Part shown: positions 20,412-58,496 of the stretch, in pieces | How the letters are laid out: each line of letters begins with the position of its first letter | Numbering within the stretch: position 1 is the first letter of the stretch | Assembly (NCBI RefSeq): GCF_006345805.1 | Contig: NC_043004.1 | Coordinates: 64,666,001 to 64,730,000, forward strand | Length of the DNA stretch: 64,000 nt | Origin: Octopus sinensis | Lineage: Eukaryota | Direction: 5' to 3' | Position numbers and translations under genes: made by a program | Notes under the pieces: model-generated | The model's database searches: none | What the model was told of the DNA's origin: nothing | Seen by the model: only the letters and a program-made list of their open reading frames with translations

Positions 20412-20424
20412 ATATATATATATA

Positions 20425-20993
<569 letters not shown>

Positions 20994-33412: not shown

Positions 33413-35009
33413 TGTATGTATGTATGTATGTATGTGTGTATGTATGTATGTATGTGTGAGTGTGTGTGTGTGTGTACATGTATCTATTTATACATATATA
33501 CACATACAAGCAATAATCTTTTAAAGTGTAATTTAGGAAGGATGTTGCCAGAGAATGGTACAGCCCTACCATTGCATGATGTAATTGTGTGTTACAGAAC
33601 GGAGCCAATGAGGTAGAAAATCTATAAATGATTAAGGGAACACCATACCTGATTAGCTATGTAGGAGAGAAGAGATTTCAGTTTGTCGATTCCTAATGTT
33701 ATTGCAGAAAAATTTGCAACACCCTAATTTTAATCTATATTCTGTAATCCAATTTATTCTCTTCTATTCGTTTCCCATCCAGTTTATCATTGCTTCATTT
33801 CCATATTATTTTTACTGCTTTTCAATCTATCTATCATCCTATTTATTTAATATTATCTATTTTGCTATCTATCTATCAGCCTATATGTCTTCCAATCTAT
33901 GTACCTATCTACCAATTTAACTACATACCTACCTAACTACCTATCTCTTTATCTACTTTATCTATCTGTCTGTCTACTTACTTATCTATTACAATGTGGA
34001 TTCTCGTCCACTTGTATGTTAGTGTCGGCACTGTAATATTCTTATCACCACTGCTATATTGTGGCGGTATTCCATATCTTATTATCTTTGGCTCATTTAT
34101 CATGCTATCACTGACAGCTCCGCAAGACAATGACTTGAACAGTCTACCTTGACGCTAACTCACACTCGCATTTGACATATATCTAACTCTGACTCCAACT
34201 CATATGACGACTCTATTACTGCTGACTCCCTACAATGACTGACTGTCTGACTTAGTCACGTGGGAAAAGGTATACCACACTATCTATCTCTATTTTCTTT
34301 ATTAGTTGAGTTTGCTGTCGCCATGATTCTGGTGTTTATAATTTCATGCCAGAGCATTTGTCAAACTTGTGAAATATATACGTATGATTGGATGTGCAAA
34401 AATACATAATTTTTCCATGCTGGTTTCAACTTTTATTGTGAATCATGATAAACTCCCACCATTGTTATTTCATACAGGGTCCTGCACAGTCTGATATGGG
34501 CTATGATGTAATATAAGAACATATCAGTAATGAGGCAAAAACGAACATGGGTTTGGATTTGATAGTCCTTTATTTTGTCTGTTACATATGCTTCAGGATT
34601 CAATAACATATGATGTTACACTATTGATGCAATCCTTAAGGGCAGCATGCATAAGCAAGCACATCCTCCTCAGATGTCTTTAATGTCCATGTTTCATGAT
34701 GACATGGGCTGAACACTCTGACAGGATTCAGCAGGTCCAAGGACTGCCACATTCTCCAATACATTCCTTGGCATAGTTTCTGACTGGATGTCCTTCCTAA
34801 CACAGTGTGAACTGGGTGATTTCTTTTTTGTACCACCAGTACCACTGAGGTTGCCATGCACACACAAGACTATGTACCTTGAGGGTGGGTGTCAGCTTTA
34901 TTGCTTGGAGATGAGGAGTTGGGTTAAAGTATAAGAGAAGGGCAGAGTGGTTTCTTGTAGATGAGCTGCACATATACGGTTCTACATTTAAGACTATGCC
35001 ATGTGCCCA

Positions 35010-35290
35010 TGGGAATATGACGTAGGGGTTAAGAATGCAGGCTACTAACCCCAAGATTTTGAGTACGATTCGAAGCAGTGACCTGAACAATAATAATAAT
35101 AATAATAACAATAATAATAATTACAATAATAATAATAATAACATCAAAAAATACCTTAGGAATGAGAACCCAGGTTCAAAATTTCCCCAAGACACTTGAT
35201 AAAGGCTGGAGGGTATAACAGCCGAAACATGTTAACAACAAGCAAGATGAGGACAAATATCCATCGAATGTAAATAATGTAAATAATGAG
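35010..35290 (+). mobile_element. tRNA-headed SINE-like element with (AAT)n linker and HHR-containing tail
   Basis: A-box-like TAGGGGTTAAG, anticodon-arm-like GGCTACTAACCC and B-box-like GAGTACGATTC, followed by (AAT)n, a body and the HHR. A second copy lies at 54128-55112. Confidence 0.7.
35191..35233 (+). ncRNA. Degenerate minimal hammerhead motif (paralogue of 54988)
   Basis: GACAC-TTGATAA-A-GGCTG(GAGGGTATAA)CAGCC-GAAAC-ATGTT. Stem III and the cleavage site are damaged. Confidence 0.55.
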
Positions 35291-37442
35291 TTGCATATAT
35301 ATATATATAAAGTACAGGAATGGCTGTGGGGTAATAAGTTTGCTTCCCAACCACATGGTTCTGAGTTCAGTTCTACTGCAAGGCACTTGGGCAAATATCT
35401 TCTACTATAGCCTTAGGCCAATCAGAGCCTTGTCAGTGGATTTGGTAGGCAGAAACTGAAAGCAGTGTGTGTGTGTGCATGTGTGTGTGTGTGTGTGTGT
35501 GTGCCTTTTTTATACTTGTGCTTGTCCTCACTAGCATTTTGCAACCAGTGTTGGTGAGTTTATGTCCCCATACCAGTTCAGCAAAAGAGATCAATACAAT
35601 AAGTACCAACCTTAAAAAAAATAAAACGTACTAGAGCTAATTCATTCAACTAAAATTTCTCAACGTGTAGTGCTCTAGCATGGCCATAGTCTAATGACTG
35701 AAACAAGATGTGTGTATGTACATATATATATATATATCATCATCATCATCATCATCGTTTAGCGTCCGCTTTCCATGCTAGCATGGGTTGGACGGGTCAA
35801 CTGGGGTCTGTGAAGCTGGAAGGCTTCGTCAGGCCCAGTCAGATCTGGCAGTGTTTCTACGGCTGGATGCCCTTCCTAACGCCAATATATATATATATAT
35901 CTTTCGCAAGTTTGACTTTCGCACCTAATGACTACTAACTCCCTACAAAGCTAAGGTGTGACATCACACCTACCCTATCTCTAGTGATATACTGTTCCCA
36001 CATCTGAGACAGATGTAGATATAGCAGCTACATATACAGTCATCTCCAATGATTACTACACACCCATGGATCAAAAACCACATCAAAATATGATTACTCC
36101 ACAGATTGGCATGAAGTCCCTCACCATCACATTCAAACAACCTATGCCACTCAGATGTGCTGCTTCCTTACTCTTCACTTTACATAACCACCTTTGTTCA
36201 TTGGAGCTGCTTTATCTCATATCACCTTCTTGTATTACTCAACACCCATACAATGTATGTTTTGTTTTGTTTTCCTCGTCACCACATCAAGCATTTCATC
36301 CAATCCTTCCTACTCTAGAATGTTATCCCTCTGAAATTCCTTTGTTACTTGTTCCAACCACCACCACCACCACCTTCCTCATTTATCCATTGGCTTCTAA
36401 TTATTCAAAAGAAACATTAACAATATTGATCTCACCGGGTTTGGAGAACCTACAAAGGTTATCAACAGAGTCCCTTCCTCTACACCACCAAACCAATGGA
36501 AAAACAGTTCATGTGTTGTTGTTGTTGTTGTTGTTGTTTTTATGGCTCTTTGTGGACAGAAGGAAATCCCAACCGAATAAAACCTGTCAATTGCAATAAT
36601 GAACACAAAGCAATAGTTATGGTGAGGTTAGAAATGGTGGTGGCGGAGGTGGTGTGGTTGTTAGTAATAGTAGTAGTAGAAGTAGTGGTGGTGGTGGTGG
36701 TGGCAGCAGTTGTTAGTCGTAGTAGTAGTAGCACAGCAACACTTTGCCTTCTTAACCACTTAGCCATCATTCATACTCAGCCGGCTACTTAGGATGTCAA
36801 CCAACAAGTTCAGAAAATATTGTGAATCTGTACATACTAAAATGTCTGCCAACACATTTGTTGTGTGTTGATTGGGTGAAATTGGTAAAAACACCTCCTT
36901 CCATAATGGCTGACACATAATACAAAATGCACAAAACTATATATACAAACACACACACAAACATAGATATATGTATATCATGTGTGTGTATGCACAGATG
37001 TGTATGTATATATTGATGGATGGATGTATGGCTGTATATATAATATGCATACACACACAAACACACACATATATATATACATATATTTGTATATGTATAC
37101 TTATGCATGTTTATATATGTGTGTATGTATATCTATAATATGTATAAATCAATAAAGAAGACACAGCAACAACTTAAACAACAAGCAAACAATCTGAAGT
37201 TGTCTCAGAGAGAAAGAAGTCAATGGTTCCGCTTAGAATTGGTGAAAATAATAACAACAAAACAGATATATTTTTCATTGTTTTATTTGAGCTTTTATTT
37301 ATTTATATATGTAGTTTTATTTCCATTTCCATATTGTCTTGTTACTGCTTTGCGATATATTCTGATTTGCTGATTTCCATATGTCAAATTCTGCAAGCTT
37401 ATTTTTATTTATTTATTTTTTGGGTTTTTAAATGTGTGAGTA

Positions 37443-37481
<39 letters not shown>

Positions 37482-37632
37482 GTATGCAGATTGATAATTA
37501 TAGATAGATATATGCTTGTGTGTGCATGTGTGCGCATATATATATATATACACATGTATGTGCATGCATAGGTATGTGCATTTATATATCTATATGTGTG
37601 TATATATGCATATATATATATATATATATATA

Positions 37633-38065
37633 TCATCATCATCATCATCATCGTTTAACATCCATTTTCCGTGCTAGCACGGGTTGGACGGTTCGACCGG
37701 GGTCTGGGAAGCCAGGAGGCTGCACCAGGCTCCAGTCTGATCTGGCAGTGTTTCTACAGCTGGATGCCCTTCCTAATGCCAGCCACTCCATGAGTGTAGT
37801 GGGTGCTTTTTACGTGCCACTGGCACAGAAGCCAGTCAAGGCGGCGCTGGCATCGGCCACGTTCAGATGGTGCTTTTTACGTGCCACCAGCACAGGTATC
37901 ACAACTACTATTTCCATTTGATATTTATTTCGATGTTCATGTACTTGACTCAATAGGTCTCCTCAAGCACAGCAGGTTGATCTGAAATCCAAGGTACTTT
38001 GAATGGGCAGGGGCTATGCAGAACTGGTGCAGGAAGCAGCCTGGGTCTTTGCAGTCACAGCATAT
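37633..38065 (-). mobile_element. Repeat family C (RTE-like 3' tail ending in (GAT)n)
   Basis: CATCATCGTTTAAC..TCC..GCTAGCA.GGGTTGGACGG...GGATGCCCTTCCTAA. Related copies at about 10090-10425, 15160-15330, 19300-19430, 22980-23200, 35737-35885, 43278-43412, 45047-45340 and 60240-60475. Confidence 0.75.
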
Positions 38066-38137
38066 CTCGAGAGATATATTTGTGTGTAAATATATGTATG
38101 ATATACATTTCCATGTGTGTGTATGTGTATATAATTA

Positions 38138-38185
<48 letters not shown>

Positions 38186-38340
38186 CACACATATATACAT
38201 ATACAGACACATACATATATACACATAAACACATGTATACACACACTGCTCTCCCATGCTGCCACCCATCCAATCCCCTCCGTTTTGACAGCTTTCTGCC
38301 ATTCTCCCTGCTTCCCTCTACACATTCATACACACAGAAA

Positions 38341-38398
<58 letters not shown>

Positions 38399-40562
38399 TA
38401 TCTAAGAATTTACGTTGAAAGTCTCTGAATATTCTTCCTTCTGACATTGGTCCAACTCTTTCTGACAGATGTTCCTCAACAGATCAACAATATTTTTGAC
38501 AGATGTTCTTCAACAAATCAACAATATTCCTCTCAAATCAGTTTCCAAACACAATTATCAATTTTTTCCTCTCCTCCTTCAAACACCAACACCACATTTA
38601 CCAGCAGCTCCCCCATCACAACCATCCATCATTTGTTTCTTCCCTGCTTTGCTTTATTCCCCCCACCTCTCCCATAGTTTCTAGTAATAGTAGCAGCAAC
38701 TGTAATAGTAGTTGTAGGGGTGGTGTTGGCAATGGTGATAATAAAATCTAAAATAAATAAAAATAAAAATAAATAAATAAATAACCATGACAACGGTGTT
38801 CGACCTCAAAAAAGAAGAAGAAAAAAATAAGGATATTTGCAAGGAAAAGCCATCATCTCATCCACCTAATGTCAGTTTGTCTTGGAATAATACTCTTTAT
38901 TAATCAGCATCATTCTTTATTAATGTCATTTTATTTTGTCATATGTTGTTGTTGTTGTTGTTTTGGACACATTAGACAATGTGCTCATAGTTGCTCTTGC
39001 TTTCCTCCTCTCTGTTGGAACATAAAAAAAAACAAGAAAAATATAAAACCGTCATGCTTGGATTGTTTTTCATTATAGAGTCTCCTTCTCAAGATTGATC
39101 TAGGGTTAAATAATAACAGCAAGAACAAATCCATATAAAGGGCATCTGTTGGTTAAGGTTACATGTGTGTGTGCCGATGTATGGGCAAGATATTTTGAAG
39201 AAGACTAACAGTCGCTCAAGTATGCTTACCTCCCTTCTTCAGGCTGCCACTGTCGTTTATCCAAGGGAAAGGCTGTCTAACATGGGAAGATAGATTTAAG
39301 CAACCAGTATTCTCACAGGCATTGCTGTTTGAATAGAAAGAGCAAGAAGAGGGACTGCAAGGCACGTGTTACAGCCCTGGTTTGGTATTTTTTTGTTTTT
39401 TCATTGACCCCCAAAAGGATAAAAGTCATAATTCACCATAGCAGAATTTGAACCCAGAGTGCAGAAAATCAGAACAAATACCACACAGCATTCTATCAGA
39501 TGCTGTAAGGACTCTCCTAATTCTACTTTTGAATGAGTCATCACTCACCTTATATAGTAGATACACAGACAACAGCAGTAGAGGCAGGTGATGCTGCTCA
39601 GCCTCAGGTCAATCCTTGATCCAGTAGCACTCCAATTAAAGGCATTCCAGCTGTAACTATTCAGTCACATTTTGGCACATCAAATACTAAATAGCCTGAG
39701 ATGATAGGGAAGTGTGATTTTTTAGAGAAACTTGGCTGCTATTTCTAGCAAATAGAGAATCCCTCAATAATTGTTGTTGCTCTATTTGTTACTGCGGTTG
39801 AAACATTCTGGTTACTGTGGCAACAGAGACTATTCTGATATTAAAACTATTTCATCAACAAAAGCTGTGTACTTGATAATGCTTGTATCACCTTATTTTG
39901 TTATGGCACAAGCACTAGAAGGGTTGCTGTGTGATTGAGAAGACTAAAAGGTCCTCTTGACTTCGTATTATCTTTATTCATTTCTCAACCACTTTAGAGA
40001 GTTTTCTGGGTGCATTTTATCTTGGCCCCTGCACTAGACAAGTCGCTGTGTACCCAATGAGGCAAAGAGTTCCAATTACTCTATGATGTATTTGTTTGCT
40101 CAAGACAATGAGGCTGAGAAGGCAACTAATAGAAAGAGGGAGAGAGAGAGAATAACAGAAGAAGCCAAGAAAGGAGCGAAAATATGATGATAGAAACAGA
40201 TTGGGATAAGAGATTAGTAGAAGAGGAGAGTGAGCAATGGATAAAAAGAGATGGTCAGTGGTCAAGCTATCTTAAATGAAAATAAGGTCACATCAAATAA
40301 TGTTGCCCCTTAATTTACTAAAACCTCAGCCTTGCAGAGATGTTAGTAAATCACTGTTAAGTTACAGGATCATAAACAAACCAACACCAATTGTACTGCG
40401 GTGAGAGATTCACACGAAAACATGTCCTCACCCATGCACACATGCACACACACACATACACACACACACACACACCACATATATACGAGAATTTTAATGG
40501 AGATAAAGCTCCAGTATAGAGTACAACTGTTTTTTTCACTTGTATAGGAGCTAAAGATTAAT

Positions 40563-41171
40563 AAAATTTGGTAATTTGGTATAAGATATTTGTCTTAAAC
40601 ATTCTGACAAGCAAACTCACAGTTCAGTTGTATGACATGAGATATTTTTCCATTCAAATAACCACATATTTATATTAAGACAGAGATGATAAGAATATAG
40701 AAATATAAAAATATAAACTTAAAAAATATAAGGAGTACCATTAAAGTAGAAAATATAGTTAGAATAGATTCAAGCAGGTGGTTGAAAAGATCAGTCCAAA
40801 CCTACAGCCGTTTCAGAAAGGAACCCTGAGGAAGGAAATGTTTTTATACAGGGAGCTGAATTTGGATTATTTCCTACAGCCCCTTAAAACTTTTATGAAA
40901 TGGCCGTAGGTTTGGATTGATCCTTTTAATCACCTCCTTTAATCTATTCTAACTATATTTTATTCTTTCATGGTACTCCTTATATATTTTAAATATTTTT
41001 TATGTTTTTATGTTTATATTCTTATATTTCTATATTTTTATCATCTATGTCTTAATATAAATATGTGGTTATTTGAATGGAATAATATCGCATGTCATAC
41101 ATCTGAATTATAAATTTATTTATCTGAATGTTTAAGGCAAATATCTGAAATTTTTATCTTGTACCAAATTT
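40563..41171 (+). mobile_element. Long fold-back element (~250 bp imperfect arms) whose loop and right arm start form an HHR
   Basis: 40563-40815 is an imperfect reverse complement of 40896-41171. HHR at 40821-40913. Confidence 0.72.
40821..40913 (+). ncRNA. Type I hammerhead motif with long stem II
   Basis: GAACC-CTGAGGA-...GGGAGCTG...CAGCCCC...-GAAA-TGGCCG-TA-GGTTT. The inverted copy at 40801-40815 reads CGGCTG, so the two arms together give a consensus palindrome CGGCCG. Confidence 0.68.
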
Positions 41172-41206
<35 letters not shown>

Positions 41207-41504
41207 AGCTTTTAAACAGTTTCTATACATCAAATTTTCTTTCACAAGGTAACAGTCAGCCCTGGGGCTAGAGTAGAAAGCAGTTGCACAGTGGGACTGA
41301 ACCTGAAACCATATGATTTTGAAGGGAACTTCTTAACCACAAAGCCATGCCCATACCAATGTGGAAGAAGATGAAAAATAACAAGATGGTCATATTTGGA
41401 ATGCTTTAGATAATAGATTTGGTCAATCAAGACAGACCATTTCAGTTAAGATGGTTGGTTGTCTCATACAGTTTATCTTAGTTTTCATACAATAGCAGTT
41501 AGGT

Positions 41505-41540
<36 letters not shown>

Positions 41541-41806
41541 TGTGGTGGTGGGGGGGCATGTCATGTCAAAAAAGACTTGTCACATCTGCAACAAGACTTG
41601 TCACATCTAAAAGACATGTCATATGGAATCAGTTATTACCTATATACCAAATAATCTCTTTGTTTAGGATCATAAGTTGAGGAATTTAAACTTTTGAATG
41701 GTTCTTCTTAATCTATAGAAAAGGTTACCAAGTACGTTTCTATCTTCTATAAGTATTCGGAATTCTAAAATTCATGCTTGTGTGCAAATGTCAATATTTG
41801 TGTATG

Positions 41807-41871
<65 letters not shown>

Positions 41872-42215
41872 CAAATACCAAAGCTCATCTGTAGATATAA
41901 ACATACCCATGTAGCATAAGCATACATACATACATATGTGTGTATATATATGTGTGTATATATATAATGTGCATTCAATTATATAATAGCTTTATGTTAT
42001 TAATTTTGTGTGTGTATATATGTATCCATGTGTATCATATGTTTGTAGATCTCTACATATTTGTGCACATATGTGTTTGTATACATAAGTTTATATAGTT
42101 AATGTGTATATACATACACATATATATATAATGTATATATATATACATACTTATGCTTTACTACACTCACACATATGGATTTATTTCACATATATGTATG
42201 TGTATATATATATAT

Positions 42216-42267
<52 letters not shown>

Positions 42268-43104
42268 TTATACATTTGTGCGCGTGTGTATATATATATA
42301 TATATAAATGTATTAATTTGCAATAATATGTATGTATACATATATGAATCTATGTGTGAATATGTTTGTAATATACATGTATTGATCTATATTGTATGTA
42401 TATATTAACTTGTTTATGAAACATATCTACATATATAACGTATGTATATATGTATACACAGACACACATACACACAGAAACAAACACACATGCAGATATA
42501 TATGTGTGTGTTTGTGTGTGTACGCATTGAGAGAGCTCTAAGAAGATACACAGGTACTCAGCATTATTTAATACCTGATTGTAGAGCAACTTCTTCCTGT
42601 GTTCAATAATATATTACTTAGATGTTTGTAGGTTTAATATTTTGATTGGTTCAACTGTCAAAATTGTGATCGCATCAAATATAAACTATTTACACAGGAG
42701 AATGTCTTGTCATTCTTCTGTTTTTGCCTATCATTGGGAAATCTGGAGAAGAAGTAAGGAGAGAGATAGACAGAGAGAGGAAGAGGGTGAGAAAGAAGGG
42801 GTTGTGTTAGATGTGGTGGTGGTTGTGGTGGTGGTGGTGGTGGTGGTGGTGGAGGTTGTTTATTGGGATGTTGATGGGGGGATTCACTTATTTATATCAA
42901 TATATATGTGTGTGTGTGTGTGCATGTGTATATTGAGAGTGTATTTATTAGTCGATATGTATTCCTATGTGTTCGTGTGCATAAATATATGCATACACAA
43001 ACACATATGTATGCAGATTTCAGTGTATGTGCATGTGTGTGTGTACAGAGAGAGAGAGAGAGAGAGAGATAGTGTATCTGTATATGTGTATATATGAATA
43101 TATA

Positions 43105-43151
<47 letters not shown>

Positions 43152-43231
43152 TGTATATATGTGTATATATATATAATATATATATACAATAGAAATATTA
43201 AAATTACTAAGTCTCTCTATATATATGTGCA

Positions 43232-43280
<49 letters not shown>

Positions 43281-43569
43281 TCATAGAGTGGTTGGCGTTA
43301 GGAAGGGCATCCAGCTGTAGAAACACCGCCAGATCTGACCCCAGTTGAACCGTCCAACCCATGCTAGCATTGAAAGCGAACGTTAAATGATGATGATGAT
43401 GATGATGATGATACATACATATATAGTGTGTGTGTATATAGATATGTGCAGATGGATGGATGGATAGACAGGCAGACAGCTAGATTGAAATAGATATATA
43501 TAGTGTGTATGTGTGTGTATATATATATATATGTATATAGTGTATTTGTGTATGGATATATATATATAT

Positions 43570-43613
<44 letters not shown>

Positions 43614-44360
43614 CACTCATATGCATTATTGACTCAGCAGAGCTTTTTATTGCTTGATGATGATGATGATGAAAGAGGTGGGGGGTACTCATGACGTCTG
43701 TAATGATCTTGATGGTAATGATGGTGGTGATGGTATTGGTAAGAAGGGTAGTGATGAAGAGGCGGTGGGGTGAGGATGGTTGGTATGATGTCGACGACGA
43801 TGATGATGATTATAAAGATGGGTGTGATAATTATGATGGTGATAAGGATGGTTGTAAAGATGGTAATGCTGCTGCTGCTGATGATGATGATAGAATGGGT
43901 GTGATGATTATGTAGATAAGAAAGATTGTTGTGCAGCTACTGATGATGATGATGATGATGATGTCACAAGATGGAAAATTCATTTCCATTTTCATGCATT
44001 ACTTTGTTTGCCAATATAGTTTGCATTCTTCAAAAATTGTTGCCAAAATAGCATTCGCAGACTAAATCTTCCTGAAAATTCATTTCAAAAATTTCTCCAA
44101 AAGCAAAATTATGTTTGAGTCTGTATACTTAATTAGTTTTACCTGTAGTATATATTAATGAACAACACACAAACACGCAAGTATAATATATATTTATATT
44201 ATATACATATAAGAGGGATGACCACTAAGTGGACATCTATTATGCTAGAAGTCGACCCCCTATGGTCTTACCACTAAGAAAGGAATGTTCTCAAGAAAAT
44301 TTAGCAAACACCAGAACATACGTGAGCAAGACAAAGGAAAAGATACAAAATATACAGATT

Positions 44361-44433
44361 AATCAGAAACCAGTTTCGTTGTTACCACTTACGTAATCAC
44401 TTACGTAGATGTCCGCAACTCGTCAGTGTGATT
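44361..44433 (-). ncRNA. Type I hammerhead motif (antisense to CELF)
   Basis: The minus strand reads AATCACA-CTGACGA-GTTG...CAAC-GAAA-CTGG-TT-TCTGATT. Stem I pairs at 6 of 7 positions. Confidence 0.72.
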
Positions 44434-44674
44434 GTCACAGCAAAATATAATTTGCAGAACTATACATGAAGCATCTGCATGAGATTGAACCTGTATATAG
44501 TTCTACCAATTACATCTGGGGTTATATTTCAAAAGTCTTCGTTTTGGCACGCCAAAAATACTGAAAATAATTGTGCAGAAAATAATTTTCTGTAGTGAAT
44601 TTTGCCGATTAGAGAACATAGTTATTTAAATTTTCATCCTTATTATATTAAATTTATATATATATATATATAAA

Positions 44675-45029
44675 CAGTGATACCTCACAGTACGAGTTTA
44701 ATTCATTCCATGACCAAGCTTGTCTTGTGATTTACTCGTTTTACAGATCAATTTTCCCAATTGAAATTAACTAAAATATAATTAATCTGTTCCAGCCCCC
44801 CAAAACCCACTCAAAAATAACTTTTATGGGTTTTAAAACAGAAAAGGTGTAGTTACAAGTAAAATGAAATATGTAAACTGGTTTTAACTGAATTACCTTG
44901 AAGCTAGGATGATTTGTGCGCTCAGACTGCAGAATTCCGCTTGTACTTCAAGGCAAAAATTCACACAAGTCTCAGCTCATACAACAAATTACTTGTACAA
45001 TGGTGCACTCGTAATGCAAGGTTCTACTG
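44675..45029. mobile_element. Tc1/pogo (Tigger)-like MITE
   Basis: Imperfect TIRs CAGTGATACCTCACAGTACGAGT and ACTCGTAATGCAAGGTTCTACTG. Confidence 0.6.
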
Positions 45030-46360
45030 TGTGTGTATGTGTAAAATCATCATCATCATTTAGCATCCATTTTCCATGCTGACATGGGTAAGACAATTTG
45101 ACAGGTGCTAGTAAAACAGAGCTGCACCAGGCTCCAGTTGTCTGTTTTGACTTGGTTTCTATGGCTGGATGCCCTTCCTAATGCCAACCACTCTAAAAGT
45201 GTCCTAGGTGTCTCTCATGTGTCACTGACACAGGTGCTTCTCACATATCACCAGCACAGGTGTTTCTCATGTGTCACTGGCATGGGTGCCTCTCACATGT
45301 CACTGGCATGGGTGCCTTTCATGTGTCACCAGCACTGGACAATATATGTATACACACACACAAATGCATACACACATACACACCTCCACACCTCTATCTC
45401 TCTTCTTTTATTTACATGTTTCTTTCTCAAATGTGTGTGTGTGCATGCATGTGTGCATTTGTACTTTACCTTAGTCTTTCAGTTCCTTGACAGAGTAAGA
45501 GTACTGTCATAACAAGGCTTGTCTTGGGCATTTTTCAACCGAGCACATCCCCACCATCTTCATGTCTTATAATCATTTTCTTTGAGAAGGACAGAGATAG
45601 ATAGATAGACAGAAAAAAAAGAGCAATAAAAAGGGATGAATTGACCCCGTTACTTGAATCGTATTTTATTTATCAACCCTGAAAGGATGAAGGGCAAAGC
45701 TGACCCCAACAGGATTTGATCCCAGAGTGCAACAAAACCAGAATGTTTACAGCAAAGCAACCTATCCAACACGTTTAACTCTGCTAAGTGGCTGCCTCAT
45801 GTATATTTATGCATGAAGGCACATGGTTATGATGCTACACTCCTGATCACTGAGTATTGTTGTGTTGAGCACATTACACATTGGTTTCATTCACTCAGCT
45901 GCAAATGGTAACCTCCACAATGGACTGGTGTTTTGATCAGGATCAATGTTGGCCTGCTTGCTTGACATGCCAGTGAAATGTAACAAAAATGGTAAAGGTA
46001 GCTTCTCGAGCTACGCCAATTCATAAGGGCCAGTTTCCCAGTTTCGGGGCCAGCTTCCTGTTTTCATTTTCCCCACCTTGACGGGATACCGGTCTGTCAC
46101 TGGATTACTCATTTTTGCTAGCTGAGCTGACTTGAGCAACATGAAATGAAGTGTTTTGCTCAAGATCACAATGCATTGCCCTGTCCAGGAATTGAAACCA
46201 CAATCTTACAATCAGGAGACCAACACTCTGACCACTAAGCCACATACCTCCACAGTCAGTGAAATGGCATAGTTTGGAACCTAGAATAATACAAAGTGCA
46301 TTGTGATCGGCAATGATTCACTAGTTAATACTGTGATATATATGTATAGATATATATATA

Positions 46361-46397
<37 letters not shown>

Positions 46398-46733
46398 TAT
46401 TTCAGGCAAAGGTGTGGCTGTGTGGTAAGTTTGCTTTCTATCTAACCACATGGTCCTGGGTTCAATCCCACTGCATGACACCTTCACAAGTGTCCTCTAT
46501 ATAGCCTCAAGCAGATCAATGCCTTATGAGTGGATCTAGTAGACAGAAACTGAAAAAAGCCTGTCATGTATGTGTGTGTGTGTGTGTGTATTAATCAAAG
46601 TGTTATATATACAGTATTATATATTCAATATAGCTGATCTTACCTGTTGGTTTCACACCAGTTGTTCAATGGGGTGTTTGTTAACACTCCAATTATGTAC
46701 CCCTGCACTCTTCAGAGATTATATATATATGTA

Positions 46734-46793
<60 letters not shown>

Positions 46794-47515
46794 TGTATGT
46801 ATATATGTATGTATGTATGTATGTATATGGAAGTGTGTATATGTATGAAGTGGTGATAATCAATCTTCCAATTGTGTCCATTGAATATGTTTCATGACTG
46901 ATATTATCTATCAGTTCAGTTCTCCACAGGCAACTCTTGTACTCTTAACACAATCCTCAGAAGGATCTACACACATGGCAATGTCTCATCTCACAAATCA
47001 TGAATTATGGTTACAGTCCATTCAAAGAACTCCCACACAGTTTCCATTTACCTATTTTCACCCATAGGGCAAAAACTCCCCAGGATTTCATGATTGCCAA
47101 GTAAACTTGAAAGAACCGATGGATACAGTTTCCTTTGTTTGAGCAGCAGATCAACTTCAAAGCAATGATGTACCTGTATGTGGTCATTAGTGTGTGTGTG
47201 TGTGTATGTGTGTGTGTGTGTGTGTATGTGTGTGTGTGTGTGTGTGTACAGTTTCTGAATGTATTTGTGTAGCAGTCAATATGGAAGTATATATATGCAT
47301 ACTCACACACATATACATACAGGTGGGGGTCCACACACACACACTAACATAAAAACACTCACAGGAATGCATTCACATACACAAAAGTATTAATTAGGTC
47401 ACAAAATGCTCATCCTAAAATCAGATTCTAATGCACTTCCTGTACTATGTGAAGAAAGGATATGTGTGTGTGTGTGTGTGATTCTATCTATCTACACACA
47501 TATATATATATATAT

Positions 47516-47570
<55 letters not shown>

Positions 47571-47685
47571 GTATATATATGTTTGTGGGAATAGATATAT
47601 GTGTGTGTCTATGTATGCATGCATGCATCTTTATCTGTGTGTGCATGTTTGTGCAGTTATGTACATAAATGTGTGCTGTTATATA

Positions 47686-47719
<34 letters not shown>

Positions 47720-48575
47720 ATATATATACACACACACACATACACATATGAGTATTCTGATAATTATTAAATGTGTATATCTGAAACCCTTCTGAGTTAA
47801 TCTTTTAAACTTTCATCCACTAAAGAAGCTTTAAATAAGTCCATCATAGGACTGAATCAAGCAAGAATTAATAACAGATACTTGAAAACTTTTGTAGGCC
47901 AAAAAATAGAAAAATACAAGAAGAAATTCACACAACATCTTGCAGCCGGCAGATAACATCCACTAAAAATTCATGCAAACTATACGTGGCTGTGTGGTAA
48001 GAAGGTTGCTCTCCAACTACATTGTTTCAGGTTTAATGCACTGCATAGCACTATGGGCTAGTGTACACTACTATAGCCTCGGGCCAACCAAAGCCTTGTG
48101 AGTGGATTTGGTAGACTGAGACTGAAAGAAGCTTGTCGTGTGTGTGTGTGTGTGTATACACATATATACTAGTTTGATAAGTGTCAATGCACAAAATTCT
48201 CAACCTCTGAGTTACTCTAGTACTTCTGCTAAATATTAATAAAAATATACATATACCATTATTTTAAGTTCTATTTTACCTGTTTGCATCACCATACCTA
48301 TATATATATATATCATCATCGTCATTTCATGTCGATGTCCAATGCTGGTGGGGGTTGGACAGTTTGACATGATTTAATAGATCTTGCTCTGTGCCAAAGA
48401 CGGCTAAAAGCAAACACTTTATCTATGTTTTGTTGTGTCTGGGGAGACTCATTCTGTTTTAATACCTTATTAATTAACACACTCACCAGTTCGATTTCCA
48501 CTCATTTTTTTTTTCTTTTCTAAAATTTTCATTATTTCTTGCAACCTTTTCTCTTGATATTGAAATAATCATTTT

Positions 48576-48606
<31 letters not shown>

Positions 48607-49078
48607 AATTGAGATAGGGGTTGTAAATGCAACCCTCTATGAGATAACATATATCCAATATACTGCTAGTGAAGTACCCAACAAAGTTAATACATAAATG
48701 TTAATGATTGCGATGCAATCAATTCATTTACTGTATTATATGGGCAAAGGTAAAATGATTTACCACAAGTTACTAATACAAGATAAGAAAATGGAGAAAT
48801 ACATCTAAATCAAATATCAATTACCAGATAATACTCAATCACATATTTTATTAAACCACCACATAAGAGACTGTAGGGCTAGATATAAAAAGCAGAACAA
48901 ATCTACTCTCTTATGTACACTTTTTTTATGTACATTCCTTTATGTACACTGATTTGTTCTGCTTTTTATATCTAACCCTACAGTCTTTTATGTGGTGGTT
49001 TAATAAAGTATGTGATTGAGTATTATCTGGTAATTGATATTTGATTTAGATGTATTTCTCCATTTTCTTATCTTGTAT
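48607..49078. mobile_element. (TA)n-flanked element with near-perfect 127 bp inverted repeat
   Basis: 48777-48903 pairs with 48951-49077 with about 3 mismatches. The 47 nt loop contains TTATGTACA three times. Confidence 0.7.
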
Positions 49079-49324
49079 ATATATATGTATATATATATAT
49101 AAACTAACTTGGAAATGGTTGCGTGGCATTTAATTAAATGATAATATAAATAATATATATATATATATATATAGGTACAGGATGTCACCAACTGTAAACA
49201 ACATGAAATAAGAAAACAAATGAGTTAAATACACAAAGCAGAGAAAAAAATAGAAGATAGGACAAGTAACACAAAGAACAACCCTTCACCAGTTGTCGGC
49301 TGTCTATCTACTCCTCATTTAAAG

Positions 49325-49325
49325 T

Positions 49326-49367
<42 letters not shown>

Positions 49368-49368
49368 G

Positions 49369-49445
<77 letters not shown>
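49325..49445. repeat. (GATA)n microsatellite, representative of very many (TA)n, (TG)n, (GA)n, (AAT)n, (TATG)n and (GATA)n tracts
   Basis: Seen directly. Other (GATA)n tracts are at 7530-7597 and 8851-8931. Confidence 0.95.
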
Positions 49446-49446
<1 letters not shown>

Positions 49447-49490
49447 GCAGACAGACAAACTCAACAATGCATCCCGTAAACAAACTTGAG

Positions 49491-49532
<42 letters not shown>

Positions 49533-50280
49533 ATGTATAATATATTGTATAGGGTTTATTGAAATAATGAATATATACTCTACATTTTAAAACATCGAGT
49601 AATTTATAAATTAGTGGTCTTCTTGATTATCTGATTAAGATCTTCATATATTCACACACACACACATTCAGAAATGAACATACGCATACATATAAAAGGC
49701 CAGTATTGATACAGGTAGCCACTATCAAAAACACACACACATACGCTTATTATTTACACCTGTGGATATGTTTGTATGTATGTATGCATGAATGAAAACA
49801 TGGTTGGGTGGATAGTTCAAAGTAGGTAATGGCTTAGAATAAAGCCAGAGGTAATCTACCAATAGCTATAGTTACTGCAATAAGGTATATTAATCGCATT
49901 AATCTCCTATATAATAATTATAATTAAGCTAATCCTCCAACACTTTAATGAGATTCTTCTGTGTTTATTTACATTCTTTTCTTTTTACCTTCTCATCGTT
50001 TATTTCAAAATAAATTTGACAGCTTAACAAATTTTTGGTTTTGTTTTTTCCGTTTATCTTCTTTTCTGTTAGTTTGGATTAAATTGTACCAAATATGAGA
50101 ATATAGAAGTGGTAATAATAGTGATGGAGATGGTTTTGGTAGTGATGAGGATGATGCTTGCAACAGCAATTACCTTGTTATTAAGATGGCAAACTGGCAG
50201 AATTGTTAGTATAGGGGATACAATGCTTTACGACATTTCTTCCAGTTCTTCATTCTGAGTTCAAATACTCATATGAAACC

Positions 50281-50745
50281 CAGGGGTTCTGTATAAGATT
50301 TTAGGGGATCCACACAACAAAATGATAAATTGAAGGTCCACAATAGAATTTTAAGGGTCCCTGAAAAAATTTTACTTTAGATGTATGTATTTAGCTGTAT
50401 GCAAGAAACAGCTAAGTTTTCTTACTCTAACATGTTACATGTTGCCCCTCAGGGACCATTTTAGATTTTTGGGGGTTCCTGCAACAAAATAGTAAATTGA
50501 GGATCCATAATAGTATTTTAAGGGACCCTGAAAAAATTTTGCTTTAGATGTATGTATAGGTATGTATTGCAAGAAACAGCTGGGTTTCTTTCTTTTACAT
50601 AGTTCAACCCACACAAGTGAAAAGCAAAATAGGAATTTTGAAAGAAGTCTCTAAAAAATTGGTTTCTAAATATTAAATGAGGGTCCACCATAATAAAATA
50701 GAAATCAGAGGTGTCCATAGATAAAAACATGGTTGAAAAACCCTG
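50281..50745. mobile_element. Possible hAT-type MITE with internal duplication
   Basis: The ends read CAGGGGTTCT and GTTGAAAAACCCTG. Internal direct repeat at about 50300-50425 vs 50470-50595. Confidence 0.45.
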
Positions 50746-51929
50746 ATATAGACTATTGCTCAAAATCATGGTACTGCACAGCACTTTTATGTGACTCCAC
50801 ACGGATGCTTTTACATGGCACCATATGGAGACTTTTACATGGCACCAAGTGCTTTTCACCACCAGAGGGCCTGGTCTTAACACTTCTGCTGCTGAGTATG
50901 TGTTTTCTTGATTATGGCAAGGTGCCAGGCATCTCCATCCTTTGTTATCTTACCTGAAAGGTTCAGCATCCTAAGGTCATTCTTCAGTACTTTATCCCAT
51001 GTCTTCTTGGGTCTCTCACTATCATCATCTTTGTCATCATCATCATCATTTTACATCCTCTTTCTATGCTGGCATAGGCTGGACAGGTATATAATCTGTA
51101 TTATAAGCCATTGGCTCATACAGCCGGTTTCCCGGATTCTCTGGTATATATATTCATCCTCTGGATGGGACACTGGTCCATTGCAGGACTCCTCATTTTT
51201 AACACAACCAATTACCTGATCCAGGAATTGAAACCACAATCTAACACTCATGAGTGCAATACCCTGACCACTAAGTCACAAGCTTCCACAGACTCACACA
51301 CACACACTTGTGTCTGTGCACATATATGTTTTAAATCAACAATGGGGAAACTATTTAGTGCAGTGGGCAAACATTTCCAAAGAAAGAAGTCTGTGGGCGG
51401 GTCACAAGTTGTAACACTTATATCTGTGTAAATCTTGTATATATCTATGCATAATTCAATACACATTAATACAGATAAGTTTAACACATTAAATTAACGC
51501 ATAACATCTTCATTAACGCCACCACTGAATTTAGGATATTTCTATTACTTATGTGATATTTTTAGTTTTCTCAGCTAAAGCATAGCTGGGTCTCAAGGGG
51601 GTGGTACAAACATAGAAATATGTGTTTTATAATGAAAACAAAATTTCCATTCAAATGGCAATTACCAGAAGATTCCTATTCAAGCCTGACTGTTTTAAGT
51701 CATAGTGGAAACACGACTTTTGTTGCAAATAGAGATACGAATATTCTTTTATTCTTTTACTCACTTCAGTCATTTGACTGTAGCTAGGACTTATTCTTTG
51801 TAAGCCTAGTACCTATTCTACCAGTCTCTTTTGCTGAATTGCTAAGTGACAGGGATATAAACACACCAACATCGGTTGTCAAGCAATGGTGGGGGGACAA
51901 ACACAAATAACAAACACATATACACATAT

Positions 51930-51987
<58 letters not shown>

Positions 51988-52630
51988 CGATGGGCTTCTT
52001 TCAGTTTCCATCTACCAAATCCACCAAATCTACCAAATCCACTCACAAGGCTTTGGTTGGCCCAAGGATATATTAGAAGACACTTGCCCAAGGTGCCATG
52101 CAGTGGGACTGAATCTGGAACCATGTAGTTGGGAAGTTGTACAAATTTTATAACTGAAAAATTTACTATATTTCGTACATACAAGTATATCAGCCTGTGG
52201 ATGCAATAAAAAAGTTCTAAATAATAATTTCAATGGTTTCTAACATCCCCACCACATCTTCAGGATGCAAATAGTCAATTAACTCAACCCTAGTAGTTGA
52301 TTAGTATTCATGTTTTACAGCATTATAAGAGTAAAAACCAAAGTGAAACTAGCATCATTTGAACTCAGAATCTAAAAGGGATGTAACTCAATATCAACGC
52401 CAACAATAAATAATCTTAACTACAATAAATAATGGTTTCCAAATATGGTGCAATGTCACAAAATTGAGATTTAGGGTGTAACCAGTTTAACGAATGACAC
52501 TGCATGAGAGGTAATTATTTAGTTGACCTTGGAAGGAGGAAAATTTAATGCTTACCCATGTTGGATTAGAACTCTTGACATGAAAGTACTTAGCTAATTA
52601 CCACTACACACTTTGTCATTCCATTACCAA

Positions 52631-52680
<50 letters not shown>

Positions 52681-53301
52681 TGATAATAATAATAATATTT
52701 TTTGAACCAGTTGAAGACACACAAGATGTCGAAATATCGTTCACTAGATAACAATGGCACTCTTCTTTTAATTTTGACTCTGTATCTTCAGGAGGAGTTA
52801 CCTCAATACTTTCTATATTAATAATAATAATAATAATCCTCTCTACTATAGACACAAGGTCTGAAATTTGGTGAGAAGGGGACTAGTTGATTATATCGAC
52901 CTCAATGTTTCACTGGTACTAAATTTATTGACTCCGAAAGGTTGAAAGGCAAAGTCAACCTCAGCAGAATTTGAACTTGGAATGTAAAAGTGAACAAAAT
53001 GCTGCTAAGCATTTTTCCCAGCATACTAACAATTCTGCCAGCTTACCACCTTAATAATAATAGTAATAATAATAATAATAATAATAATCCTTTCTACTAA
53101 AGGCACAGGGCTTGAAATTTGGAGATAGGGGACTAGTCAATTATATCGACCCCAGTGTTTCACTGGTACTTAATTTATTGGGCCCAAAATGGATGAAAGA
53201 CAAAGTCAACCTCAGCAGAATTTGAACTCAGAACATAGTGGCAGACAAAATACTGCTAAGCATTTTGCCCGGCATGCTAACGATTCTGCCAGCTCACCAC
53301 C

Positions 53302-53347
<46 letters not shown>

Positions 53348-53777
53348 TGATGATGATGATGATAATAATGATTTCAAATTTATGCACAAAACCAGTAATT
53401 GACCCACTCCCAAGCAGATCTCAAATGGTACTTATTTTATTGACCCTGGAAGGAAGAAAGGTAAAGTCAGCCTGGGTGGAATTTGAACTCAGAACATAAA
53501 GATGCCAGCTTAGCAACTAGCAATTCTGCCAGCTTACTGGCATAATAAAACTAATATTTTCTACTAAAGACACAAGGCTTGAAATTTTTTGGGAGGGGAC
53601 TAGTCAATTACATCAACCCCAGTATTTCACTGGTACTTAATTTACTGACCTCTAAAGGATGAAAGACAATGTCAACCTTGGCAGATTTTGAACTCAGAAC
53701 ATAGCAACAGGCAAAAATGCCACTGAGTATTTTATCCAGCATACTAACAATTCCTCCATCTCACCACCTTAATAATG

Positions 53778-53833
<56 letters not shown>

Positions 53834-54253
53834 CCTTTCTAGTGGAAGCACAAGGCCTCAAATTTGGGGGAAAGGATTAAGTCAGTTACATCGACTCCAG
53901 TGCATAACTGGAACTTATTTAATCGACCCCAAAAGGATGAAAAGCAAAGTCAACCCCGGTGGCATTTGATCTCAGAATGTGAAGACAGACGAAATACCGC
54001 TAAGCATTTCACCCGGCATGCTAACGATTCTGCCAGCTCGCCGCCTTAATAATAATAATAATAATCCATTATTTACATTATTTACATTTGACGGATATTT
54101 GTCCTCATCCGGTTTGTCACTATATACCCGTAGTGGTTATGAGAGCAGGCTACTAACCCCAAGATTCTGAGTTCAATTCCAAGCAGTGACCTGAACAACA
54201 ATAATAATAATAATAACATTGAAAAATACCTTAGGAATGAGAACCCAGGTTCA

Positions 54254-54974
54254 GCGATTTGCATTGGACAAAACACATCGCTAAAATTGCCAAGAAGGCT
54301 GAGGGTGTCTTGGCATCACTCACCAAGTCCTTTGTGAGCCGCTCTCCGGTTATCTATCTGCAGCTTTATATAGCTATGGTAAGACCTCACCTGGAATTTG
54401 CATCACCAGTGTGGAACCCCTATTTTGCCCAGGATATTAATCGTCTGGAAGCCGTTCAGTGACATGCAACCAAGAGAATACCCTCCATCAGGCATTTGCC
54501 ATATTCTGAACGCCCTACTTCTCTGGGCATGGACACATTGCAACTCTGACATCTAGCAGCTGACTTGGCAGACACCCATAAAATTATTAACCATCGTACA
54601 AACAATAACTCTGAGCACCTTTTCAAACTCCACCTGTCTAACACTAGTGGACATGTTTACAAAGTCACAAAACAGCACAGCTCCCATGACTTTTGGAAAC
54701 ATTTTTTCATGCTAAGAGTTGCTGAAGCATGGAACAGACTGCCAGCATCAGTTGTTAGTTGTCGGAGCACTGCATCCTTCAAAACATCCATGCTTCCTGA
54801 GATTCGCCAACACTACACCTGATTTTCTCCCCTCCATACACACACAAACATGTATCTGACTCATACACTGTTTGCTTTCCAGACATTTGTACATTACTGC
54901 ATATACTTTATACACACTTTTTGACAAGTTGTGGTGCACCTGAGCACTGTATACTATAATTTCATTATTATTAT
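54254..54974 (+). mobile_element. 5'-truncated CR1-clade LINE (ORF2 C-terminus and 3' UTR), with stops
   Basis: HWTKHIAKIAKKA...LYIAMVRPHLEFASPVWNPY...DINRLEAVQ*HATKRIP...GHVYKV...FFMLRVAEAWNRLPASVV...FK, ending in an (ATT)n tail. Confidence 0.9.
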
Positions 54975-54987
54975 AAAATTTCCCCAA

Positions 54988-55033
54988 GACACCTGATGAA
55001 GGCTGGAGGGTATATCAGCCGAAATGTTGTGGT
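54988..55033 (+). ncRNA. Minimal hammerhead motif in the tail of a tRNA-headed SINE-like element
   Basis: GACAC-CTGATGA-A-GGCTG(GAGGGTATAT)CAGCC-GAAA-TG-TT-GTGGT. A paralogue lies at 35191-35233. Confidence 0.68.
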
Positions 55034-55560
55034 AACAACAAACAAGATGAGGACAAATATCCGTCGAATGTAAATAATGTACATAATTCTTCATCTCTTA
55101 AATATAGAACTGAATGATAATAATGATAATAATAATGGTCCTTTCTATAATAGGCACAAGGCCTGAAATTTAATGGGGAAGGTACTAGTCGATTACATCA
55201 ACTCCAGTATGCAACTGGTACTTAATTTATCAATCCCTGAAAGGATGAATGGCAAAGTCAACCTCAGTGGAATTTGAACTCAGAATGTACATACAGACCA
55301 AATGCTTAGCAACATTTTGGCCAGCATGCTAATGACTCAGCCAGCTTCTACTTCTAATAATGGTTATTTCTCATATAGGCACAAGGCCTGAAATTTTAGG
55401 GGTGGGGCAGTCAATAACATCAATCCCAGTGTTCAACTGGTACTTATTTTATCAAGGCAAAGTTAAACTCAGTAAGATTTGAACTCGGAACATAAAATGC
55501 TGGAAGAAATACTGGCTAGAATTTTGTCTGACAACCTAACGATTCTGCCAGCTTACCACC

Positions 55561-55630
<70 letters not shown>

Positions 55631-57844: not shown

Positions 57845-58494
57845 TAGCAATTAAGGACAACTACTTAATAAGGAAAACTTAACAAGAAATTGTCAGGTAG
57901 ATAGCGTAAAAACCTCATAAGAGAAAAAATTTCGAAAATAATTATTTCTTATTGAACATATTAATTTATATATAGAGGGCATTATACATACATGCCAGAA
58001 GGCACTATACATACATGCCAAATGCTAAGAGGGACAATCAGTCATTTCTACCAAAAATATTACTAATCCCACCGCTATCTACCTGACAATTTCTTGTTAA
58101 GTTTTCCTTATTAAGTAGTTGTCCTTAATTGCTAAATTTTTATTCCGAAAAAACTTTTCCTCTCCCGAAATGCAATTCGTAAAAGTTTGCCATTTACCCG
58201 GATGTAATATATGTAAACTCACCCATGTGCTTCGTTGATGTTGATCAGTTAGCTGATCGGCTTAAGCGGGGCTGGGTCGTTGTTTATTTATAATACATTC
58301 AGGCCTGCTGATGATTACGTAAGTATGAAATCACTGTGATACAGGTCTATATTTTTAAATGTCTTACTTTGAAAAATTGCATTCGGTGGGATTAGTAATA
58401 TTTTTGGTAGAAATGACTGATTGTCCCTCTTAGCGTTTGGCATGTATGTATAGTGCCTTCTGGCATGTATGTATAATGCCCTCTATATATAAAT

Positions 58495-58496
<2 letters not shown>
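57845..58496 (+). mobile_element. Second copy of the 20425 family with permuted, doubly inverted arrangement
   Basis: 57845-57905 pairs with 58072-58134, and 57963-58072 pairs with 58385-58496. HHR at 58301 and (TA)n flanks. Confidence 0.8.
58301..58348 (+). ncRNA. Type I hammerhead ribozyme motif, same family as 20597, stem II base pair degenerate
   Basis: AGGCCTG-CTGATGA-TTAC(GTAA)GTAT-GAAA-TCAC(T)GTGA-TA-CAGGTCT. Stem I differs from the 20597 copy but still pairs. Confidence 0.8.

Follow-up and report, generated by a model that had tools for sequence, protein, structure and literature searches.

Poseidon of Anolis carolinensis (PAc) is a Penelope-like element (PLE) with a pseudo-LTR (pLTR) and a single ORF that encodes a reverse transcriptase (RT) with a C-terminal endonuclease (EN) and runs over a hammerhead ribozyme; it has two 3' ends about 35 nt apart (the tail) and AT-rich targets (PMC11167929). 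All these features recur in a PLE of Octopus sinensis, two short copies of which lie in the 64,000-nucleotide stretch analysed here (the window). Its protein is 37% identical over 541 aa to an RT-EN protein of Anolis carolinensis, which may not be that of PAc itself. Compared with PAc, as described in the parts of that report considered here, the octopus pLTR differs in having a tRNA-like head with A and B boxes and an (AAT)n tract, a copy number that steps sharply at the 5' edge of the head, and a sense strand free of TTTT; its first ATG lies 5' of the hammerhead core, whereas that of PAc lies at stem II (PMC11167929).

The minimal hammerheads of metazoan PLEs are of type I, with a short helix I, an unpaired base 5' of helix II, a G-C closing pair, palindromic positions 15.2-16.2 and no loop 3 (PMC4209133). 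The octopus motif, known from sequence alone, is similar in each of these respects but, unlike those in the sections of that work used here, it is situated behind a tRNA-like head. The SINE-like Sm-alpha and Sj-alpha elements of Schistosoma are also high-copy tRNA-related repeats with a hammerhead, for which the available portion of their description names no partner PLE (PMC2770079), whereas the octopus parent PLE has been identified and bears the head. A Pol III promoter derived from a small RNA is likewise found in the terminal repeats of the TRIMp3 elements Helenus, Ajax and Cassandra, where it is proposed to have originated by SINE insertion, but these are non-autonomous LTR elements with PBS/PPT (PMC10886601), and the octopus element is a protein-coding PLE. 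Short non-coding derivatives of PLEs related to the pLTR have been described as non-LTR retrozymes (10.64898/2026.07.22.740005) and non-autonomous Chlamys elements (PMC8557442). Retrozymes form head-to-tail tandem arrays, and the term 'tRNA' has no occurrence in the accessible text of the preprint (10.64898/2026.07.22.740005); the octopus copies, in contrast, begin at the tRNA-like head and mostly stand alone or in head-to-head pairs, with an adjacent direct repeat of the unit in only two of 93 rows (L128 and L147). No published PLE with a tRNA-like pLTR was found in the literature searched, Dfam and Repbase lying outside that search.

Two short copies in the window

The first-pass annotation had described a chimeric SINE, with a Pol III head fused to a tail borrowed from a PLE. 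Both copies are real, and they are short pieces of a protein-coding PLE. Their parts are as follows.

34989..35008, minus strand: inverted piece (about 20 bp) of the 5' end of the head before copy 1, read from the sequence as reverse complement
35011..35087, plus strand: tRNA-like head of copy 1, beginning at tRNA position +1, from sequence comparison
35018..35028 and 35063..35071, plus strand: A box and B box of copy 1, both mutated
35088..35141, plus strand: (AAT/AAC)n linker of copy 1, read from the sequence
35142..35190, plus strand: body of copy 1, including an ATG at 35162
35191..35234, plus strand: minimal type-I hammerhead of copy 1, damaged
35235..35288, plus strand: AC-rich segment of copy 1 up to the 'short' 3' end, without the tail extension and without poly-A
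54067..54117, minus strand: inverted, 5'-truncated partner of copy 2, ending at the short 3' end
54129..54195, plus strand: tRNA-like head of copy 2, cut off inside the A box; B box at 54171-54179
54196..54254, plus strand: linker and first part of the body of copy 2
54255..54974, plus strand: nested 3' piece of a LINE, which contains stops, has an (ATT)n tail and is foreign to the PLE family
54975..55112, plus strand: end of the body of copy 2, minimal hammerhead and 'long' 3' end with the PLE tail of about 35 bp

The annotation had given the two copies a common head, linker, body and hammerhead. The shared parts do align (88% over 67 nt in the head and 89% over 112 nt in the tail), but both hammerheads are damaged: in copy 1 the core is mutated and helix III/I carries a deletion, and that of copy 2 has an intact core (54993-54999) and a C>T change that breaks the palindromic helix III. 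Rfam called no hammerhead in either window copy. An intact hammerhead is nevertheless a property of the family, with 1,999 exact 35-mer matches in the genome and an intact core in 42 of 78 copies, and the predicted motif agrees in sequence and fold with those of PLEs. Both boxes ascribed to the head were located, but copy 1 has mutations in the A box, and copy 2 retains only part of it.

Copy 2 had been read as a single element spanning 54128-55112, but it is long only because the 720-bp LINE fragment is nested inside it, and the element itself measures about 265 bp there, not 985 bp. The fragment, which we take to be CR1/Jockey-like, matches an RT fragment in the flank of another locus, L017 (28% over 79 aa, E 2e-8), and a 68-aa piece of it has no match in Pfam. 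Its presence in copy 2 might suggest an ordinary SINE with the 3' tail of a LINE (RTE/CR1/L2), but neither copy 1 nor any of the other 29 head-anchored loci contains it. The tail that the copies have in common is that of the PLE, pLTR-ORF-pLTR copies exist and none of 90 tail-anchored segments ends in poly-A, the poly-A or simple-repeat tail of a LINE-type 3' end being absent; this explanation is refuted and retains next to no probability.

The inverted copy annotated before copy 2 is present (about 54067-54117, 92% over 50 nt), although what it copies is not the extreme 3' end, and it makes up a head-to-head pair with copy 2, one long and one short. The piece at 34989-35008 would be the snap-back or head-to-head remnant of a similar event before copy 1, and its type of junction recurs in many genomic copies.

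The parent element and its tRNA-like head

The unit is ordered pLTR, single ORF (RT, C-terminal EN), pLTR, each pLTR comprising head, (AAT)n, body, minimal hammerhead and tail, and the ORF stays open across the body, hammerhead and tail and on into the RT. The ATG at 35162 corresponds to the first in-frame ATG of this ORF when the pLTR is 5' of it, and is retained in 37 of 40 copies. The column-majority sequence of 25 copies has 841 open codons, with the first ATG before the hammerhead, and one natural copy has 401 starting from the linker. The RT domain matches Pfam RVT_1, and a single ORF with a PLE-type RT is typical of EN+ PLEs, as is the putative C-terminal GIY-YIG endonuclease. The EN aligns with the GIY-YIG region of an annotated relative, P0084 (E 7e-10), and also with P0043; the EN piece of a degraded copy gave no direct match in Pfam or PDB. 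All 30 loci fetched in a protein search of the genome belong to this family. The element is an autonomous PLE of the RT plus C-terminal GIY-YIG type, with head, linker, body and hammerhead forming its pLTR, and the Penelope/Poseidon-type label is suggested by domain order and similarity.

A SINE would have a head absent from its autonomous partner, but here the head lies within about 40 bp past the endonuclease stop at 29 of 30 EN-anchored loci (the best-scoring matches, the query's own locus included), and the near full-length pLTR-ORF-pLTR copies L276 and L270 have it in both upstream and downstream pLTRs. The head belongs to the autonomous element, and the chimeric SINE is not supported. 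Of 36 heads, eight are not linked to the tail. An independent head-only family was considered for these eight and rejected, as they stop in or just past the linker with unrelated flanks; two of them continue into one common inserted repeat.

The head is about 60% identical to real tRNAs of this genome. In a partial set of 20 distinct tRNAs from 30 loci, the closest is tRNA-Arg(TCT) (46 of 76 positions), with Thr and Cys close behind. In having a 5' head that is related to tRNA and contains A and B boxes, the element resembles a SINE. ARAGORN and Rfam called no tRNA in the two window copies, and the acceptor and T stems are unpaired by inspection. A hairpin spans the 5' boundary of the head, at about -10..+5 and extendable to -18..+10. 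Looking for other SINE families with this head turned up no more than 63-64% similarity, by a regular expression too strict to recover most of the family's own copies. Near the control ORF L351, a tRNA-like match was found 480 bp 5' of the truncated ORF, a frequency equal to the shuffled rate (1 vs 1).

Ends, numbers and variants of the short copies

Exact 20-mers are found in the genome 808 times for the EN, 858 times for the sequence just upstream of the head, 4,938 times for the head and 11,590 times for the tail; the last two numbers greatly exceed chance, their reversed controls having no match. The 5' ends lie at -8..+8 of tRNA position +1 in 21 of 36 head-anchored segments and in 24 of 38 tail-anchored segments retaining the head, a rate 13-24 times that upstream, with several solo ends at -4 to -7. 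Around the site of hammerhead cleavage, where a window of 7 nt holds 6 of 31 starts from five events, the excess is too weak to count as enrichment. Truncation is high everywhere, given that 52 of the 90 tail-anchored segments lack the head by script classes, which misclassified L136 and L152 among them. An inverted partner accompanies 52 of the 90. Head-to-head pairs combine a long and a short end in 35 of 38 cases and two long ends in none, and flanking direct repeats of at least 8 bp were found in 17 of 38 events (shuffled mean 0.4). These inverted pairs with 5'-truncated partners, the partial-tandem pLTRs, the pLTR-ORF-pLTR copies and the lack of poly-A are PLE insertion hallmarks, and the tail corresponds to the pLTR of a PLE with RT and EN; mobilization by a Penelope-type RT and not by a LINE, as first proposed, is upheld.

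Both window copies are probably short insertions of the pLTR of this autonomous Penelope/Poseidon-type retrotransposon, the tRNA-like A/B-box sequence of which is likely to be the Pol III start of the element's RNA. Because copies mostly start at the tRNA-like sequence, it is likely to be the element's Pol III promoter; the copy-number step and the pile-up of 5' ends point to an RNA start at these boxes, and we infer start sites, polymerase and cleavage alike from the ends of DNA copies. By analogy with the biochemistry of Anolis Poseidon, the RT/EN protein would nick both strands of AT-rich DNA, and reverse transcription would begin internally, at two sites about 35 nt apart just past the hammerhead (PMC11167929). 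The first pLTR would be copied back to the RNA 5' end at the tRNA edge, yielding SINE-looking copies of about 270 bp, often as a head-to-head pair whose ends are one long and one short, and copies reaching into the ORF would derive from the second pLTR or from a circular or tandem template. In this reading, the short copies are likely to be by-products of the transcript of the PLE itself and not a separately spreading SINE.

A true PLE-dependent SINE, in which Pol III transcribes solo short copies and the PLE protein retroposes them in trans, as a lineage of their own, would fit with the roughly 5:1 excess of short over ORF-attached copies, and with their A and B boxes and their start at the tRNA edge. 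However, the head is integral to the autonomous element, and short (n=80) and ORF-attached (n=55) copies have the same non-CpG variants, with none specific to short copies in this small sample. Their divergence (4.6% and 5.4%, respectively) indicates a similar age, and the single strong difference between them is a CpG site, biased by the first query used. The minimal template of Anolis Poseidon, in the part of the study drawn on here, takes in part of the ORF beyond the RT start sites (PMC11167929); solo copies lack this stretch, and the junction 20-mer occurs at only 123 places. Such a SINE lineage seems quite improbable, although the shared variants leave room for recent short copies that may propagate themselves.

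Pol III and the whole element

The 2.5-kb sense strand contains no TTTT, versus 3.0-5.7 expected, and 30 of 31 related PLE ORFs do contain it. This absence is a hint that Pol III reads the entire element. Alternatively, the tRNA-like piece may be a passenger in the pLTR of a normal Pol II transcript, the copy-number step resulting from a coincident Pol II start, from RT stalling or snap-back at the hairpin, or from tRNA-like processing. Pol III RNA is uncapped, which poses a difficulty for translation and would favour Pol II. The hairpin could add to the 5'-end pile-up through structure or microhomology, two control ORFs are likewise low in TT (0.87, 0.93) and, as known PLEs have their promoter and transcription start in the pLTR (PMC8557442), Pol II could happen to start at the head. 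However, the copies end in the hairpin loop and 5' arm (-8..+8) and not at the 3' foot, where RT would stall first; the solo ends at -4 to -7 are upstream of where RNase P would cut, and the unpaired acceptor and T stems also argue against processing. T-run depletion is the strongest of the 32 ORFs compared, and two AATAAA hexamers still present in the ORF are a slight pointer in the same direction. A passenger tRNA-like piece is unlikely.

Possibly, the likely Pol III promoter serves the element in its entirety, an uncommon arrangement for a transposon that encodes a protein. We tentatively propose, as a possibility still open to considerable doubt, an autonomous retrotransposon transcribed by Pol III from end to end, with a captured tRNA-like promoter in its pLTR, an RNA of about 2.7 kb devoid of TTTT and cap-free translation, perhaps aided by the hammerhead, internal priming on the same RNA giving rise to SINE-like copies in their tens of thousands. 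Self-cleaving hammerheads can promote cap-independent translation in other systems (PMC13725137).

In their tens of thousands, the short copies record the PLE cycle as it occurs in nature: they mark where the RNA probably begins and the two sites at which RT starts, in agreement with the single in vitro study of a PLE. What passes for a tRNA SINE in an annotation can prove to be the pseudo-LTR of a PLE, which bears on elements of the Sm-alpha type and on repeat libraries. If Pol III does read the whole ORF, a tRNA-type promoter would be driving a protein-coding retrotransposon, for which cap-independent translation is testable, and a Penelope element could give rise to a SINE directly.

The window copies and their Penelope-type parent

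The two copies proposed in the first-pass annotation are real: they agree at 88% over 67 nt in the tRNA-like head and at 89% over 112 nt in the tail, and an (AAT/AAC)n linker and a body are likewise common to both. The inverted piece of 3' region claimed ahead of copy 2 is also present (50 nt), and together they form a pair of one long and one short 3' end, the long one including the ~35-bp tail of a Penelope-like element (PLE), inserted in an (AAT)n tract. A family copy does occupy 54128-55112, but it owes its length to a nested 720-bp LINE 3' fragment with stops, presumably CR1/Jockey, which has weak similarity to another reverse transcriptase (RT) fragment. The minimal hammerhead motif reported for both copies is found in both, in damaged form, and ARAGORN and Rfam called no tRNA or hammerhead at either. 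Judged by the repeats, the host may be an octopod.

Features in the window
35010-35290 (approximate): copy 1 of the family
54128-55112 (approximate): copy 2 of the family
54255-54974: LINE 3' fragment nested in the body of copy 2
~52800-55600: SINE-like repeat of ~250 bp, distinct from this family, in tandem units with (AAT)n tracts between them, one of which holds copy 2
20418-20782 and 57962-58496: two related MITE-like elements with ~110-bp terminal inverted repeats, each with a motif resembling a hammerhead core (at about 20604 and 58308)
2900-3480: repeated and inverted arms around a sub-threshold Rfam Hammerhead_HH9 match (3261-3331, 33.7 bits); possibly another PLE-type remnant

The family had been described as a chimeric SINE with a borrowed tail; the head proves instead to lie within an autonomous PLE. 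Sequence upstream of the head, common to several loci, encodes the C-terminal part of a PLE endonuclease (EN); of the best 30 loci found with this piece, 29 have the head ~40 bp beyond the stop codon. In two near full-length elements (L276, L270) the ORF lies between two pseudo-LTRs (pLTRs), each made up of head, linker, body, hammerhead and tail. The tail is of Penelope type, as claimed. Pfam assigns the RT to RVT_1; over 541 aa, one copy shares 37% identity with an Anolis RT-EN protein. The EN can be aligned to a GIY-YIG-annotated relative, with no direct match in Pfam or PDB. Taking the majority base per column across 25 copies gives a frame that, counted from the body, stays open for 841 codons and has its first ATG upstream of the hammerhead. 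In one natural copy, counted from the linker, 401 codons are open, and the residues encoded by the hammerhead resemble the N-terminus of an outside relative (P0008). Every ORF copy seen is degraded (89-95% to the majority). It is close to certain that the family is a Penelope-type element. Seven long copies (L248, L258, L263, L267, L273, L277, L278) contain internal jumps that bring parts of the ORF right up against the pLTR, which suggests that template switching is common. One near full-length insertion (L092, L245-L247) recurs at 98% identity on a chromosome and three small contigs, likely as assembly duplicates or a segmental repeat.

The minimum-energy fold of an intact natural copy places helices I and II around the conserved core, with one base left unpaired ahead of helix II and a helix III that is palindromic and loopless, features that the available text of PMC4209133 describes for minimal type-I hammerheads; by sequence and fold, the motif is a predicted member of this class. 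The core is intact in 42/78 copies, the only clearly polymorphic non-CpG core site being the free N7 (55 T, 22 A), and a 35-mer across the motif has 1,999 exact matches.

Abundance, insertion and origin of the short copies

Exact matches in the 2.72-Gb genome numbered 4,938 for a head 20-mer and 11,590 for a tail 20-mer (reversed controls: 0), which at ~5% divergence corresponds to an estimated total of about 14,000 heads and about 30,000 tails. A tail lies downstream of 28/36 heads in a genome-order sample; the other eight heads either break off at or close to the linker or contain an insertion. Among 90 tail-anchored segments, some of them two halves of one insertion, a script assigned 5' ends to the head boundary (25), ORF (8), head interior (5), linker (21) and body or tail (31), although two loci (L136, L152) belong to the upstream class; given this spread, headless tails look like 5' truncations. 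The pLTR linker is often broken by other repeats (L002, L006, L073, L082, L210, L214); one of these repeats, the 3' end of a LINE, is found repeatedly at (AAT)n sites.

The insertion hallmarks anticipated at first pass were recovered: poly-A was absent from all 90 segments and 52 had an inverted partner. Their 3' ends cluster in two groups ~35 nt apart, and 38 unique head-to-head events comprise 35 long+short, three short-short and no long-long pairs, 17 of the 38 being flanked by direct repeats of 8-14 bp (shuffled mean 0.4). One-sided tails of 30-40 bp and inverted partners are PLE signatures in the available text of PMC8557442. Anolis Poseidon, in the portion of PMC11167929 available, cuts both DNA strands at AT-rich sites, its RT starts internally at two sites bounding the tail, and its minimal template extends further into the ORF.

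The 80 short and 55 ORF-attached copies compared, partly picked by similarity, share two main non-CpG variants (33/80 vs 26/53; 34/78 vs 14/52), diverge similarly and include no variant specific to short copies. A 20-mer across the junction of pLTR and ORF is present in only 123 places. Solo copies would be dead ends produced from the PLE's own RNA, if the RT needs sequence beyond the tail.

The literature searched, partly in excerpt and with Dfam/Repbase and the 1994 octopus SINE paper outside its scope, yielded neither a PLE whose pLTR is tRNA-like nor a tRNA SINE driven by a PLE; repeat catalogues may already list this family as a SINE or as Penelope. In the excerpts available, the nearest ideas include Sm-alpha (PMC2770079), Pol III promoters inside LTRs of non-autonomous TRIMs (PMC10886601) and the derivation of retrozymes from PLEs (10.64898/2026.07.22.740005), and the octopus (PMC13282606) and giant squid (PMC6962438) papers give class totals only.

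The tRNA-like edge and the extent of transcription

Counts of 20-mers are flat upstream of the head (808 in EN and, 114 bp away, 858 just before the head), then rise 5.8-fold across the next 58 bp. Segment 5' ends fall at -8 to +8 of tRNA position +1 in 21/36 and 24/38 segments, a per-base rate 13 and 24 times that upstream and 7-10 times that inside the head, the two samples overlapping and the Poisson P values being rough. Within the head, an A and a B box are spaced as in tRNAs; it is ~60% identical to real tRNAs, with no clear parent among those compared. The simplest reading is that the RNA would begin, as in Pol III genes, a few bases upstream of the tRNA-like head. A hairpin spanning the same boundary might contribute to the pile-up, but the 5' ends sit in its loop and 5' arm, not at its 3' foot. 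A tRNA-like promoter probably sets the RNA start of this Penelope-type element.

TTTT, a terminator-like run, is absent from 2,556 nt of majority sense strand, against expectations of 3.0 (codon shuffle, P 0.027), 4.4 (base shuffle, P 0.008) and 5.5-5.7 (synonymous re-draw, P 0.001-0.003). Among 31 related control ORFs of at least 400 codons, kept from 80 metagenome loci with the closest relatives left out, one lacked TTTT and none reached P 0.02; TT observed/expected is 0.80 here vs a control median of 1.19. In 38 controls, each taken with its 300 nt downstream, a regex that finds only 12/30 of the family's own degraded heads gave no A/B-box match. Several points speak against whole-length Pol III transcription: GGGG is absent too (expected 1.1), a majority sequence is set against single contigs, two control ORFs also have low TT (0.87, 0.93), and U-runs may be avoided for other reasons. 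Two unrelated metagenome PLE ORFs (L371, L384) have low TT/TTTT content, with no A/B-box head detected. Pol III may transcribe the coding unit over its whole length, though we lean against it. Such RNA would be uncapped, a difficulty for its translation; the available text of PMC13725137 describes hammerheads promoting cap-independent translation in other systems.
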